31,109 nt of DNA from a virus. Lineage: Duplodnaviria; Caudoviricetes. The position numbers were made by a program, and so were the translations under genes. The notes below the pieces were generated by a model. That model did no database searches. It saw nothing but the letters and a program-made list of their open reading frames with translations, and was not told the origin of the DNA. Positions within the stretch are counted from its first letter, which is position 1; every line of letters begins with the position of its first letter. The stretch is from the IMG/VR virus record IMGVR_UViG_3300028629_000032, positions 1 through 31,109 of that record. One strand, written 5' to 3'. Below are positions 3,854 to 27,639 of the stretch, in pieces.

Positions 3854-5353
3854 CTAAAATCCTTCAATTCCAAACCCAGTAAAACCACCTTTTTTATCAA
3901 ATGTTGATATCATAGTATCATCTGGTTTATCAGGATTGGTTACTCTATATCCATTTTCAAATTTAAAATATTTAAAGTTAGTTTTAAATTCTAGAGATTG
4001 ATCTGATTTTCCACTTCTATTTTTTCCAACTTTTACATATACTTTATTATCAACAGTTCCATCTTTTATTAATAAGAAAATACAATCTGAATGTTCAATT
4101 TTCTTAGCTGATTCTGAAACTTGATCTAAATTTAAGCTTTTAGAGTCCGCTGTTCTATATGCAGACTTATTTAATTGTGTAGCTGAAATGATTGGAATTC
4201 CATAATGAACTGCCAAGTTCTTTAAAGATAGTGTAATAAATCCGAGTTCCAATCTATATAAGTCATATTTAACATCTGTTTTAAGAAGATCCAAATAATC
4301 TACATACAATCCTTTAATGGACTCTTTTCCATACTCAAGAATAGCATCGTCTAAAACCATGGACAAATCTACTGTACTAATCGACATACCAGGAAAATAT
4401 TTTAGTATTAGTGTAGATTTTGTCTGTAGCAATTTAGCTTTTATTTGATCTTCAATATATTTTTTACCGTGTTTAACAACATCCCCAATAGCATCTTTAA
4501 TTACTTTATTAAATAACATTTGATATAATCTAATTAAAGTTTCGTCAACTGAGTTTTCAAGTGTTACATAAATAAATACATTTTCAACTTTCTTATCTTT
4601 ATCTTTTTCAGGAATTAATACTGTATTAGTACAATTTGCGATACAATTTAACATTAAAGTCGATTTTCCTGAACCACTACCACCAGCAAAGATGTATAAT
4701 CTAGAAGCTTCAAATCCTCCATTAAATATATCATTATCTAAAATTTGAAATCCTGTTGGTGTAGTATTTTTTCTTTCATATTTTTCTAATGCTCTAATTA
4801 ATGCATCTTCATAATCATCTTTAAATAAGTCGAGAGATTTTGATGCTTCTAATGCTGTGGATCTTCCAGCATCCATTAAACCTAAATACATTTCTCTGAC
4901 TATTTGCTCGTAATTTAGAACAACATCATCCATAGAATCGTAAGATCCATCTTTCCATGTATCTATAAAACTAGTTATTTTATCATAGTTGTGCAGCATG
5001 GAATTTAACTTTTTTCTAAGTCTTATTTGATTAACGTTATTCTCCAAAATATTATCTTTAACTTCTTCATTCATTTTAATATAAATGAAATCAATAACAT
5101 TTTTGAACTTCTCACTGAAAGAGAGACTGTCAATAATATTATCTATATCTTTATCATTTAATCTCATCTGACATACTTTAATTAAGCAGTCAACTTTATT
5201 TTTAATTGACATCGGAATACTTATCTTTTCCTTCTTTTTATAAAAATCAAGAATCTCCAGAATATCTCTATATAATGTATTATTCCTTCTGATTTTTGTA
5301 TTTTTATTAAAGATTAATGAAAAACATGAGTCAACAAAAGATTGGGTTATCAC
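3854..5353 (-). CDS. Replicative SF4 DNA helicase (DnaB/T4 gp41-like)
   Basis: Walker A GGSGSGKS, catalytic TLEN, Walker B YVDYLD, SATQLNK, KNRSG. Confidence 0.9.
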   Translation of the reverse strand: MITQSFVDSCFSLIFNKNTKIRRNNTLYRDILEILDFYKKKEKISIPMSIKNKVDCLIKVCQMRLNDKDIDNIIDSLSFSEKFKNVIDFIYIKMNEEVKDNILENNVNQIRLRKKLNSMLHNYDKITSFIDTWKDGSYDSMDDVVLNYEQIVREMYLGLMDAGRSTALEASKSLDLFKDDYEDALIRALEKYERKNTTPTGFQILDNDIFNGGFEASRLYIFAGGSGSGKSTLMLNCIANCTNTVLIPEKDKDKKVENVFIYVTLENSVDETLIRLYQMLFNKVIKDAIGDVVKHGKKYIEDQIKAKLLQTKSTLILKYFPGMSISTVDLSMVLDDAILEYGKESIKGLYVDYLDLLKTDVKYDLYRLELGFITLSLKNLAVHYGIPIISATQLNKSAYRTADSKSLNLDQVSESAKKIEHSDCIFLLIKDGTVDNKVYVKVGKNRSGKSDQSLEFKTNFKYFKFENGYRVTNPDKPDDTMISTFDKKGGFTGFGIEGF

Positions 5354-14143: not shown

Positions 14144-14638
14144 CTATAATAACCACTTACAATATCCTTCAAAAATGTAATACTTACCATCATTATTCCA
14201 TAAATTCTTTTGAGATGGATATACATCATCAAGAAGTTTCTTTTTTTCATCTTTGTTTTTTACTTCAAAAATATATGGTGCTTGCATATTAACATTGTAA
14301 AAAATAACATTATATTTCATTTCTCTTAAAAAATTTTCTCCTATTGAACCAGACATTCTATGCGCAGGATGAAACTCATGAATGGGATCTGGAAAATAAT
14401 AGGTATTATAGGGAGAGAGAAGATGACCAGGAATAGATTTCTGAAACAACTGAACTTTTAGGTTTGGAACAAAATCTTTAAGTTTTAGGGCTTCTTCTCT
14501 TCTTTCATTTGATACATTTTCTGTATAAATAACAACTGGTGAAATATCTTTGTTTGTTAGAATAGAATAACAACCAATTATTTCGTCATCTGGATGTGGT
14601 GCAATAATAATAACTTCAGATTTTTTTCCGTTTTCCAT
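14144..14638 (-). CDS. PIG-L/LmbE-family N-acetylhexosamine deacetylase
   Basis: APHPDDEIIG, RREEA, HPAH, YPSQ. Confidence 0.85.
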   Translation of the reverse strand: MENGKKSEVIIIAPHPDDEIIGCYSILTNKDISPVVIYTENVSNERREEALKLKDFVPNLKVQLFQKSIPGHLLSPYNTYYFPDPIHEFHPAHRMSGSIGENFLREMKYNVIFYNVNMQAPYIFEVKNKDEKKKLLDDVYPSQKNLWNNDGKYYIFEGYCKWLL

Positions 14639-22050: not shown

Positions 22051-22128
22051 TGGTGCCCCAGGTAGGATTCGAACCCACAGCGACGAGGATTTAGAGCCCT
22101 CCGCTCTTACCATTTGAGCTACTGGGAC
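22051..22128 (-). tRNA. Amber suppressor tRNA (anticodon CUA)
   Basis: GTCCCAG/CTGGGGC acceptor, GCTC/GAGC D-arm, GAGGG-CTCTAAA-TCCTC anticodon arm, GTGGG-TTCGAAT-CCTAC, A-CCA. Confidence 0.9.
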
Positions 22129-22134
22129 ACACTT

Positions 22135-22443
22135 TCACAATTCTAATATTTGAAGTTTTTTAAATAAATCTTCACTTCCTGTGACCGTTGCTAATGCAGT
22201 CATTTCATTATTCAAATCTGGTTCTCTAAACGATGCATGAGCAATTGATTTCTTATGGAGCTTATGATCCCACCATCCAAGTTCATTAACATCTTTAACA
22301 CCCAAATAAACTAGAATTCCATTATCCCAGCTATAAAGATGTTTATATGGGAACTTAAGAAGAAACTCCGCTATTGCATGACCCGCTTGAACTGCTTGCT
22401 GAATGTTCGTTAGATCTTTCCGAACTAGGACATACATTTTCAT
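22135..22443 (-). CDS. Peptidyl-tRNA hydrolase PTH2-like protein
   Basis: KMYVLVRKDL...QAVQAGHA...FREPDLNNEMTALA; start reassigned to ATG 22443. Confidence 0.8.
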   Translation of the reverse strand: MKMYVLVRKDLTNIQQAVQAGHAIAEFLLKFPYKHLYSWDNGILVYLGVKDVNELGWWDHKLHKKSIAHASFREPDLNNEMTALATVTGSEDLFKKLQILEL

Positions 22444-22717
22444 ATCGTTCTTTCCAGTATTGTTTTGTTTTGTCAATGAACTTTCTGTCTGGCTCATTTC
22501 CTTCGGAGGGACGTTCGATTTCATTATATTCTCTTCCCCTCAATTCACAGTAAGCGATGTGGTTGTGACGAAATTCCCATTTCAGCTTGAGAATTTCATA
22601 TTCTAGAAATGATAATGTATAATTTTCTCTTTTATCAAGTTTTCTATGATCTTTATAAAACCTGATCTCTTTTGCCCAATCTTTTAGTTGATTTTTTAAT
22701 TCAATGTATTTCTTCAT
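22355..22717 (-). CDS. Hypothetical protein overlapping the PTH2-like gene
   Basis: AGGAGG RBS; FRHNHIAYCELRGR; 89-nt overlap. Confidence 0.7.
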   Translation of the reverse strand: MKKYIELKNQLKDWAKEIRFYKDHRKLDKRENYTLSFLEYEILKLKWEFRHNHIAYCELRGREYNEIERPSEGNEPDRKFIDKTKQYWKERYENVCPSSERSNEHSASSSSGSCNSGVSS

Positions 22718-22735
22718 TACTCTATCCTCCTAGTT

Positions 22736-22804
22736 TTATTTACCTTTTTTAGTTGATAAATAAAAATATGGAGGAGCTCTTTGTTTATCAAAACCCTACG
22801 TCAT
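22736..22804 (-). CDS. Putative leader peptide with in-frame amber codon and RAPP motif
   Basis: GGGGGTG RBS; ATG ACG TAG GGT TTT GAT AAA CAA AGA GCT CCT CCA TAT...AAA TAA. Confidence 0.55.
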
Positions 22805-22816
22805 AATAATCACCCC

Positions 22817-23092
22817 CTATTTAGAAAATTTCCTCCGCTTCATTTCAGCAGAGATTTCAGCTCTAAGTCTTTGAATTTTATCATATTCTTTTATTGCTTT
22901 CGTTCTAAATCCCGTCCCAGTAAGATAATTGAGAATTATCTTCAATTTATATTCTGGTGTCGAACTAATTGGACCCATATAATTTCTAAGTTGCTGTAAA
23001 CACCATTCAGGTCTAACATTCCACTGACCAATTAACTGTTGCCTGGTTTTCTGCCATTCAGGATCTTTAACAATTTCTTTTATATTTTGCAT
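22817..23092 (-). CDS. Hypothetical protein
   Basis: 91 aa, GAGG RBS, TAG stop in frame with the leader ORF. Confidence 0.65.
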   Translation of the reverse strand: MQNIKEIVKDPEWQKTRQQLIGQWNVRPEWCLQQLRNYMGPISSTPEYKLKIILNYLTGTGFRTKAIKEYDKIQRLRAEISAEMKRRKFSK

Positions 23093-23925
23093 TTTATATC
23101 CCTCATTAATTCTTCCATAGATGGAATATAATCTCTATATCTTATAAATTTCCACCCCAAGTTTTCTAGATCATCCTGTCGTTTCTTATCTGAATCTTCG
23201 TTTTGATGCCAATAAGAACCATCATATTCAATTGCAATCATATGTTCTGGAATAGCAATATCAATACATCTATTTACTTCTTCAACTGGAAAATTTAATA
23301 TCGAATTTGAATATATGGATGCAATCAACTCATACAATTTTACTTGTGGTTTAGAAGGATTTTTAATAAACTTATTTAAATAAGCAGCTCCACCATTTAT
23401 CATCCACTCTCTATGTTCTTTATAAAAAGATATTCTATTTGGATGATTCTTCATTTTATTTATTGTTTCTGAAGAATGATGCTTTCCGTAAAATGGGTTA
23501 TCTGAGCCACAAAATTTTCCTTTCCTAGATTCACTAATATTCTTTCTATGTTCATCTGATTTTTTCTTTCCTGTTAACGCATTTTTTATATTAATAACTT
23601 GCTGAGGGGTTCTCTTTTTTCCTTTTAATCCTAATATTAGTTTTTGTTTAGATTCTTCAGATAAATAACCATGCTTACCTTTGTTCCATGGATCTTTTCC
23701 AATTTTAGAATCACTCATTCTTTTTCTTGATTCTTCAGTATGTTTTTTACCTTTATTTGATTTTGATATTCTACTTCGTCTTTCTTTTGAAAATTCTTTT
23801 CCTATATTTCCTAAACTATTTTTTAATCTTATATGTGGGCATTTTGTAAATATGTATTCACAACACAATTTTCCATTTTTAAGTTTAAATTTACCAATTT
23901 GACCGCATCCATAACTACATAACAT
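23080..23925 (-). CDS. Putative homing endonuclease: NUMOD3 repeats plus Vsr/DUF559-like nuclease
   Basis: GKKHTEESRKRMS, NPFYGKHHSSET, IDIAIPEHMIAIEYDGSYWH. Confidence 0.85.
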   Translation of the reverse strand: MLCSYGCGQIGKFKLKNGKLCCEYIFTKCPHIRLKNSLGNIGKEFSKERRSRISKSNKGKKHTEESRKRMSDSKIGKDPWNKGKHGYLSEESKQKLILGLKGKKRTPQQVINIKNALTGKKKSDEHRKNISESRKGKFCGSDNPFYGKHHSSETINKMKNHPNRISFYKEHREWMINGGAAYLNKFIKNPSKPQVKLYELIASIYSNSILNFPVEEVNRCIDIAIPEHMIAIEYDGSYWHQNEDSDKKRQDDLENLGWKFIRYRDYIPSMEELMRDIKCKI

Positions 23926-23933
23926 TATATTAT

Positions 23934-24266
23934 TTACTCCGGAGTATAAGTTTCAATTTTTAAATTTTTTTCTTCCATTTGTTTATCAAGTTCTTTTTCA
24001 ATATCATATATACCCTTGATAATCATGGAAGCTTTAAGCTTATGCCATACTTGAAACTCTTTTGTTTTAACCATTCTTTCAAATGCTACTTTTTTGTTTT
24101 GTAATTGATCTCTATGCTCCCTCGATTCTCCAACTGCACCAGATTCTCTATGAATGATTCTTACACCAGTCTCTCGTTTATTTTGATTTTGACCACCCTT
24201 TCCACCTGAGCGAAAAGTTTGAATTTCAAGATCTTTTTTAGTTACTGAAAACAATAGTTCTTTCAT
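23934..24266 (-). CDS. Class-I release factor GGQ-domain protein (ArfB/PrfH-like)
   Basis: RSGGKGGQNQNKRETGVRIIH...RDQLQNKKVA; 110 aa, no codon-recognition domain. Confidence 0.88.
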   Translation of the reverse strand: MKELLFSVTKKDLEIQTFRSGGKGGQNQNKRETGVRIIHRESGAVGESREHRDQLQNKKVAFERMVKTKEFQVWHKLKASMIIKGIYDIEKELDKQMEEKNLKIETYTPE

Positions 24267-27144: not shown

Positions 27145-27639
27145 CTATACTATAAACTGTAAAGAATCAGCTTGTTTAAATTGTCCAAAATTTAACAAAT
27201 AATTTGGTTTTTTAGTTTCATCGAGATTTCCTACTTTTACTCCTGCTTCTATAAATTGTGCCTTCTCAAAAACCTCATCTCTTGGTAGGTATCCAAGGAT
27301 CCAACCAATATTATTTTTTCTACTTATTCCACAAAACAAATAGTAATCACTGTTTTGTTTTCTAAGTTTTGGAAGAAGAAACTCTACATATGGAGATGGT
27401 CTTTTCTCTAGTGTTCTAGATTTTATTTCTATTGTTTTATTATTATAAATAATATCATATTCACTTGTATCTGCAAAAGTAGATCCTTTATAATATATTT
27501 CAGAAATAATTACACCCATCGCACCAATAATCTTGTCTTTCCCATTATTAAGAGAATCCTTATACTTAGGCATATTTTTACATCTTTTTTCTGCTAAATC
27601 CCACATTTCCTTTGTAAGTGTAATTGGTATATATTTCAT
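27145..27639 (-). CDS. Putative PD-(D/E)xK nuclease-fold protein
   Basis: YDIIYNNKTIEIKS motif. Confidence 0.55.
   Translation of the reverse strand: MKYIPITLTKEMWDLAEKRCKNMPKYKDSLNNGKDKIIGAMGVIISEIYYKGSTFADTSEYDIIYNNKTIEIKSRTLEKRPSPYVEFLLPKLRKQNSDYYLFCGISRKNNIGWILGYLPRDEVFEKAQFIEAGVKVGNLDETKKPNYLLNFGQFKQADSLQFIV

Follow-up and report, generated by a model that had tools for sequence, protein, structure and literature searches.

What use has a phage for a tRNA that reads a stop codon if that codon still ends its genes? According to the Lak phage study, 51 of 51 Lak genomes encode a TAA suppressor tRNA (anticodon UUA) with no sign of TAA recoding (PMC8346664), and the XacN1 report found no readthrough target for that phage's CUA tRNAs (PMC5852040). 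The question is raised anew by the sequence analyzed here (hereafter the window: 31,109 nucleotides of a Caudoviricetes virus, IMG/VR record IMGVR_UViG_3300028629_000032), on the minus strand of which a leader open reading frame (ORF) with an internal UAG is followed by two small genes and a tRNA with a CUA anticodon. We find that this module is real, conserved, and, as far as the literature was searched, undescribed, and that the two small genes are likely made only when the phage's stop-reading tRNA out-competes normal termination.

A leader ORF with an internal stop codon

The first-pass annotation, made from the sequence, had claimed a minus-strand leader with its own ribosome-binding site (RBS), an in-frame UAG, and an R-A-P-P motif ahead of the Shine-Dalgarno (SD) sequence of the next gene. 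The sequence bears this out: RBS, ATG, UAG, R-A-P-P, TAA, SD, and ATG are all present (all module coordinates below are on the minus strand). The purine-rich leader RBS (22811-22818) overlaps the TAG stop of an upstream ORF (23092-22817). The leader itself (22736-22804) reads Met-Thr-UAG-G-F-D-K-Q-R-A-P-P-Y-F-Y-L-S-T-K-K-G-K, beginning with ATG at 22804 and a Thr codon, ACG. Its UAG (22796-22798), which we refer to as the gate, has Thr before it and a purine after it, and matches the anticodon of the tRNA. The R-A-P-P codons, the predicted stall site, occupy 22769-22780, and the TAA at 22736 ends the leader 5 nt before the SD AGGAGG (22726-22731) of a gene for a helical protein (22355-22717; ATG at 22717). 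A gene for a Pth2-fold protein (22135-22443) overlaps the 3' end of the helical gene, and the CUA tRNA (22051-22128) begins 6 nt after the Pth2-fold gene ends.

The gate TAG is not an assembly error, because contigs from two other sequencing runs cover it: one (run X9) has 0 differences to the window over 22703-22853, and the other (run X6) has 1 difference over 22632-22809. Low-depth contigs over the region also occur in four RNA runs of three studies, from which neither transcription nor its level can be read. A promoter scan of the region performed at chance level, and an Rfam search of it returned the tRNA only. Incidentally, the TAG that closes the upstream ORF (22817-23092) shares the frame of the leader, and ribosomes reading through from there would meet two UAG gates; this in-frame upstream TAG is not shared by a close relative (L011).

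Conservation of the leader

If the leader has a function, a stop codon followed by in-frame Pro-Pro should recur upstream of homologs of the helical gene. This gene belongs to a family of 1,475 representatives (E ≤ 0.001). The alignment of 110 homologs used for scans provided 132 loci besides the window; one locus had no profile hit, and the remaining 132 rows, window included, were reduced to 107 at 90% identity. Eight of these were dropped (six with <150 nt upstream and two weak Absconditabacterales hits), leaving 99 distinct loci. To pass our strict test, a locus had to have, ahead of the helical gene, a UAG, then 2-14 sense codons, then in-frame Pro-Pro.

The test was passed by 85 of the 99 distinct loci, compared with 1.75 in shuffled sequences; only three pass with TAA and four with TGA in place of UAG. 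The loci are related, so these counts are not independent events. A chance arrangement in AT-rich intergenic DNA might be suspected given that short motifs are common and that 20 of 473 control genes from these loci pass the TAG test. Both the 85 of 99 loci and the joint changes of gate codon and anticodon (see below) contradict such an origin, and we consider it vanishingly improbable.

What is conserved is the design rather than the exact motif. Arg stands two residues before Pro-Pro (R-x-P-P) in 38 of 85 loci, with RGPP commonest (23), then RSPP (8), and RAPP, the core on which the first-pass annotation had based its arrest claim, a minority form (3). Thus, the in-frame Pro-Pro end of that claim stands, and RAPP itself does not generalize. 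Leaders range from 5 to 25 codons; RGPP, RSPP, and KPP-stop dominate their ends, and 50 of 85 have a stop codon directly after Pro-Pro. The rest of the module is similarly persistent: the Pth2-fold gene adjoins the helical gene in 75 of 82 loci, and among the 77 loci that have 1.5 kb of sequence downstream, 66 have a CUA tRNA.

The gate is not universal. The 14 of 99 loci that fail the strict test are mostly variants with one proline (RGSP, RASP, RGQP, RGP-stop) or a locus with UAA (L098), and 21 of 177 clusters in a broader pool (see below) had no gate by automated search. Leader, Pth2-fold gene, and tRNA are all absent from three loci (L030, L110, L139).

Two outlying loci deserve mention. 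In a distant relative (L002, 2740-2826), two short ATG-led frames end in TAG, and R-A-P-P is encoded in the +1 frame on an SD hairpin, with no tRNA called in the locus; this arrangement might be a frameshift form of the gate. In addition, a complete module (L138) lies on a 427-kb contig that is assigned to a Thermoplasmatota MAG and may be a binned phage.

A predicted hairpin over the next ribosome-binding site

The Pro codons of the leader are complementary to the SD of the helical gene, as had been noticed at first reading, and they form the anti-SD strand of a predicted SD-hiding helix. In the dominant predicted fold (22725-22775, -17.6 kcal/mol), the Pro-Pro codons and following bases (22775-22755) pair with 22744-22725, which includes the SD, with pair probabilities of 0.8-1.0. 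The helix is therefore longer than the 6 bp originally seen. The alternative hairpin proposed at the same time, TTGATAAA/TTTATCAA, was rejected: its energy is weak (-2.5 kcal/mol), its pair probability is 0.0, and its 5' arm is altered in the six close relatives whose leaders were printed.

Across loci, the predicted cost of opening the RBS has a median of 11.0 kcal/mol for 85 cassette loci, compared with 5.0 for 183 further genes led by an SD and 4.8 for 255 shuffled sequences. With a ribosome modeled at the UAG the median is 11.8, and with the ribosome at Pro-Pro it is 2.6 (11.5 and 1.8, respectively, in the window). Part of this drop is built in, as more sequence is masked and the ribosome footprint is assumed, so it is the controls that carry the weight. 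Likewise, the minimum gate-to-helix distance of 9 nt was imposed by a search constraint and has no evidential value. The leader end is thus predicted to lie on a hairpin that hides the next RBS, an arrangement of the kind seen in translational attenuators.

Do ribosomes stall at the leader end, or merely pass through it? Readthrough ribosomes might melt the hairpin in passing or reinitiate, with Pro-Pro arising as a by-product of a CCUCC anti-SD; this would concern one step only and be compatible with any output of the module. The codon pair CCT CCT is indeed the commonest (32 of 85), the window's own leader runs through the hairpin to its end 5 nt before the SD, and the UGA-gated leaders described below end in R/K-G-P-D. 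Set against this, 14 different Pro-Pro codon pairs occur among the 85 loci and both Pro codons fall outside the predicted helix in 21 of them, which suggests selection at the peptide level. Moreover, 38 of 85 loci have the R-x-P-P form, and RGPP, its commonest version, is the strongest arrest core in PMC12992588. A point against a stall is that the nascent leader peptide would be only 11-12 residues, far shorter than the characterized RAPP peptides, and RAPP arrest depends on N-terminal context (PMC10951233). On balance, we think it fairly probable that ribosomes stall at the leader end, and a gate that works without stalling somewhat unlikely.

Stop codon context and other positions of the gate

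The residue and base flanking the gate differ from those at true stops. Thr precedes 52 of 120 gate UAGs and 14 of 487 true stops, and Thr, Pro, or Gly together precede 70 of 120 gate UAGs and 7 of 66 true TAG stops. The next base is a purine at 116 of 120 gate UAGs, compared with 46 of 66 true TAG stops. Two UAGs are stacked in 36 of 84 leaders. As reported in PMC7246954, Thr is depleted before bacterial stops and release is slow after Pro and Gly; the same paper describes a Mycoplasma assay in which Thr or Pro before the stop had no effect on expression. Taken with the residue counts, the release data of the paper indicate that gate contexts disfavor release.

Gates are found not only in leaders, and overall we recognize three layouts (leader, internal to the Pth2-fold gene, and N-terminal). 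An in-frame TAG occurs inside the Pth2-fold gene in 20 of 89 loci, and in 19 of them it falls in one loop. In the cultured phages XacN1 (ORF364, locus L184), Xoo-sp13 (gp327, L185), ME3 (gp266, L187), pT24 (gp293, L188), and RAS14 (L190), the Pth2-fold gene begins Met-x(-x)-UAG, placing the gate at codon 3-4, and the annotated starts lie downstream from this ATG and its gate. The module thereby exposes genes that are misannotated where the true start precedes a stop. A CUA tRNA was confirmed in XacN1, pT24, RAS14, and ME3, and is a pattern match only in Xoo-sp13; in XacN1 and RAS14 it lies far from the Pth2-fold gene. No convincing gate, and by pattern search no CUA tRNA, was found in the T4-like phages phiAS5 (L186) and Ahp1 (L191), and one N-terminally gated record (W07) has no confirmed CUA tRNA among the two of three pattern matches that were checked. 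As a separate observation, at two loci (L120, L122) the stop codon of the helical gene is a TAG that shares its frame with the Pth2-fold gene.

The tRNA, and whether the stop codon is recoded

The tRNA of the window is of the canonical short-arm type (ARAGORN; Rfam RF00005, 55 bits). We rejected the identity tRNA-Pyl suggested by the ARAGORN "Pyl" label, which follows the anticodon only: the Pyl-type cloverleaf has a short variable loop and no TPsiC/GG, and the window tRNA has canonical D and T loops and the RF00005 score given above. Comparison of the discriminator base and acceptor pairs among the cassette tRNAs revealed no conserved amino acid identity elements. N73 is A in 40, G in 19, U in 15, and C in 2 of 77, and the 3:70 pair also varies widely. 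The identity of the tRNA is thus free, as expected if any residue will do. Five of 78 CUA tRNAs and two UCA tRNAs (L283, L329) have C in place of the near-universal U33, which may weaken decoding, and three loci (L408, L420, L262) have a tandem pair of CUA tRNAs.

TAG remains in use as a stop. In the AT-rich window, 13 of 46 ORFs of ≥100 residues end in TAG, as do 41 of 226, 23 of 229, and 11 of 153 long ORFs in three large UAG-gated genomes (G002, G004, and G003, respectively). Clean extensions past TAG number 0 of 16 in the window and 4 of 73, 3 of 89, and 1 of 23 in large relatives, no more common than extensions past TGA. In the window and these three genomes we found no sign of TAG recoding and no TAG-specific gain in coding; the codon is not used as sense in many genes, as it would be for a recoding tRNA. 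The same is true of the codon of the Lak UUA tRNA (PMC8346664). A noisy per-locus flag for TAG-interrupted genes gave 24 flags against 19 control flags over 116 UAG-gated loci.

Nor did we find other target genes for readthrough in the window and the three large relatives. A search of these for further UAG leaders returned only the cassette's own and one without a downstream gene, using a genome-wide pattern that missed the cassette leader of G002. The CUA tRNA of G003 and that of G004 accompany the module and do not belong to the tRNA arrays. It follows that a suppressor tRNA by itself is no evidence of recoding. The reason that many phages carry a stop-reading tRNA without recoding that stop would be that the genes of the module need it, and this offers a concrete, testable target for the unexplained suppressor tRNAs of Lak phages and XacN1 (PMC8346664 and PMC5852040).

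Gate codon and anticodon change together

If the tRNA serves the gate, the two should change together. We pooled 280 Pth2-fold loci (including the best 80 of 98 and the best 80 of 241 from two sets), clustered them at 85% into 177 clusters, and compared the stop in the leader with the nearest same-strand suppressor anticodon. The pairs are UAG/CUA in 114 clusters, UAA/UUA in 3, UGA/UCA in 3, and UAA/CUA in 2; the last are pattern mispicks, the loci concerned (L013, L204) having UAG leaders. The remaining clusters comprise 10 with UAG and no tRNA in the locus, 13 with N-terminal UAG, 2 with N-terminal UAA and 3 with UGA and no tRNA (both unconvincing matches), the 21 already mentioned in which the automated search found no gate, and 6 that are too short. 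In Lak B, A, and C, the leader has UAA and R-G-P or R-G-S-P, and a UUA tRNA immediately precedes it.

A tree of 56 rows and 87 columns, with many forks open, groups the UAA/UUA locus L098 with CUA loci in starred clades, separately from the Lak pair; a starred clade also unites the UGA loci with CUA loci. These placements indicate at least three separate joint switches of gate codon and anticodon. Internal TAGs occur in long frames flanking four non-UAG loci (the Lak loci L189 and L261, and L283 and L331), and one TAG in a fifth (L329); the gate there is another codon, in line with a gate that works as a true stop. L098, by contrast, looks standard-code, with TAG apparently still a stop, yet its gate has moved to UAA/UUA. 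Two further loci (L260, L284) have TGA at invariant Trp codons of the Pth2-fold gene together with a UAG gate and CUA tRNA, which suggests that UGA is read as Trp in these phages.

In another reading, the two proteins activate or charge the tRNA and, by positive feedback or as a timer, switch the infected cell to sense decoding of the stop, either to express late genes or to shut off the host. Stacked gates would give such a device a sharp threshold, and the module is present in code-15 Lak phages. The Lak gate and tRNA, however, concern UAA, which stays a stop (PMC8346664), UAG-gated genomes show no TAG-interrupted genes beyond background, and there is no conserved amino acid identity to insert. 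We judge this reading quite improbable.

The two proteins

The helical protein (120 residues; motif R-H-x-H-I-A-Y-C-E-x-R-G) belongs to no named family, and searches of Pfam, PHROG, and NCBIfam gave no hit. Its AF2 model (pLDDT 92) had no Foldseek hit at E ≤ 0.001 in BFVD or PDB and no usable match in the ESM Atlas, and the best VIA matches (Z 6.8) are generic helical hairpins.

The second protein had been called PTH2-like from the sequence. The fold is supported: its model (pLDDT 93.5) matches the archaeal Pth2 structure 2zv3 (E 2.5e-6, TM 0.75-0.80), and the family has invariant Q, H, E, and T residues. The other part of the claim, a peptidyl-tRNA recycler, is doubtful for an enzyme of the ordinary kind, given scores below the family cut-offs (PF01981, E 3e-4, 21.5 bits vs. 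23; NCBIfam, 13 vs. 126) and a changed active site. The catalytic residues of canonical Pth2 are Lys, Asp, and Thr; aligned to 2zv3, the phage family has Q/S/Y for Lys, an invariant Glu for Asp, and mostly Asn for Thr. With these changes, peptidyl-tRNA hydrolysis is a putative activity.

Natural fusions of the two proteins occur in L047, L080, and P0032; a complex prediction for the pair returned no answer (score 0.00) and counts neither way. The protein upstream in Lak shows no link to the helical family in a single-sequence profile comparison and joins it only via iterated profiles (29-sequence set), so we treat their homology as tentative. In XacN1, Xoo-sp13, RAS14, pT24, ME3, and L292, an HD-like domain, fused or adjacent, replaces the helical partner (HDIG E 3e-5 in ME3, weak elsewhere, with hits under the cut-off).

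The HD fold can act on RNA ends, and its presence in these six bears on a further possibility, that the gate reports the tRNA pool. Charging of a tRNA so poor in identity elements would have to await a free synthetase, such as might be left when a host anticodon nuclease or a 3'-end-modifying toxin has removed the cognate tRNAs. As a counter-defense, blocked tRNA 3' ends would be repaired by the Pth2-fold protein and its helical or HD partner. The absence of fixed identity elements in the tRNAs fits this. Selection for release-poor contexts before the gate points instead to competition with release factors, and the HD hits are under the cut-off; we find the idea unlikely.

A proposed sensor of weak termination

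How might these parts work together? We propose that translation of the leader would normally end at the UAG, leaving the next RBS paired. When the tRNA beats the release factor, ribosomes would run on to Arg-Ala-Pro-Pro and probably stall, and a ribosome at that position is predicted to open the hairpin and thereby to allow synthesis of the helical protein and of the Pth2-fold protein coupled to it. Taken as a whole (readthrough by the tRNA, stall, and switch-on), this gate mechanism is very probable in our estimation. Comparative evidence favors the switch originally suggested: support across loci extends to the gate, to an arrest-like end located on the arm that sequesters the SD, to activation by readthrough, and to a link with the tRNA of the module itself. 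As to the unit under control, the prediction extends to translation of the two proteins, and there was no sign that expression of the tRNA is switched.

The output is less certain. The module may sense weak termination, with a tRNA of its own as the comparator, following the logic of prfB. When termination falls short, the Pth2-fold enzyme and its partner would hydrolyze peptidyl- or aminoacyl-tRNA esters that accumulate or that promote readthrough, and their hydrolysis would pull readthrough back down. Our preference for such negative feedback has four grounds: the gate acts as a true stop wherever this could be tested, its context disfavors release, the inserted residue seems immaterial, and no other target was found. 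We infer it with about even confidence. Termination efficiency would then be a variable that is monitored in phage infection.

Stop-reading tRNA, peptidyl-tRNA-hydrolase fold, and stop-gated control travel together, which could also mean that the module is a substitute release factor: the tRNA would read the stop, the Pth2-fold enzyme would cut the peptide off, and termination would be restored, as RF2 does for prfB. It fits that the main tRNA arrays of G003 and G004 do not include the module, and that no other readthrough targets were found in the genomes tested or, according to PMC5852040, in XacN1. We found no precedent or structural support for such an activity, and the tRNA is far from the gene in XacN1 and RAS14, so this too seems a distinctly unlikely role. 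More broadly, it is possible, if doubtful, that large phages carry a termination system of their own, consisting of a tRNA for one true stop and a stop-gated Pth2-fold enzyme with a partner. Its task would be either peptide release at the stop (a tRNA-guided release factor) or a reset of readthrough after loss or hijack of the host release factors, with gate codon and anticodon swapped together as the phage code changes. Negative feedback on weak termination remains our preferred reading.

Comparison with known systems

The nearest parallel in logic is prfB, the gene for RF2, which is autoregulated by a frameshift at an internal UGA. As there, an internal stop in a release-poor context gates the product, which would be made only when termination is weak. 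The phage module differs in that the stop would be bypassed in frame by a dedicated cognate tRNA, with no frameshifting, in that the products are a Pth2-fold and a helical protein rather than a class I release factor, in that it is encoded by a phage, and in that there are three gate layouts. In ermC, cat, secM-secA, and mifM-yidC2, which are controlled by leader-peptide translational attenuation, a ribosome on the leader frees an SD held in a hairpin, as predicted for the phage leader. The inputs of those systems are an antibiotic, an amino acid, or pulling force; that of the phage module would be stop decoding by a co-encoded tRNA.

The leader also resembles the RAPP/RGPP arrest peptides (ApdA, ApdP, ApcA, CruR; PMC10951233 and PMC12992588), with which it shares an R-x-P-P ending and a position ahead of the gene that would be controlled; the R-A/G-P-P near the ORF end that marks such peptides is seen as RAPP in the window, within the R-x-P-P set of 38 loci. 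The known peptides are ~100-200 residues with an N-terminal sensing domain or localization signal (PMC12992588), whereas the phage leaders, at their 5-25 codons, have neither, reach the motif only by readthrough of an internal stop, and in the 50 of 85 noted above stop directly after Pro-Pro. A search of PMC12992588 for the terms phage, stop codon, readthrough, suppressor, and release factor gave no match. Recoding suppressor tRNAs of Lak and crAss-like phages (PMC8346664 and PMC13037316) share with the module a phage tRNA with a stop-codon anticodon. They differ from it in that the module's codon remains a stop in the genomes tested, and its tRNA lacks a fixed identity and has its own gates as the only conserved targets found. 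With Pth2 hydrolases (PF01981; 2zv3, 3erj, 1q7s) the phage protein shares the fold and a Q-x-x-H motif, and differs in sequence (only ~20% identity), in its scores below Pfam and NCBIfam cut-offs, and in the stop gate.

Taken by itself, the leader adds a fresh form to the known translational attenuators. No system that we found in the literature matches the combination of a gate, a dedicated tRNA, and a Pth2-fold effector, in three layouts and with three codons; our search covered titles and the openings of abstracts, and supplements might list such leaders. As a natural stop-gated switch, the module may also be of use in synthetic biology.

Neighboring genes

A gene with an RF-1 domain (ArfB-like, GGQ; 23934-24266, minus strand) lies ~1.1 kb upstream of the leader in the window. 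We rejected it as part of the module, as such a gene is near only 4 of 177 loci and in 0 of 5 related genomes. Between it and the module is a homing endonuclease gene of the NUMOD3/DUF559 type (23080-23925, minus strand), which is absent from this position in L001. Elsewhere in the window, three genes on the minus strand (3854-5353, 14144-14638, and 27145-27639) each have a terminal TAG that shares its frame with a following gene at a distance of 9 nt. Ribosomes that read through would make fusions of these three pairs; the TAG there probably reflects overlap of the stop codon with an SD.
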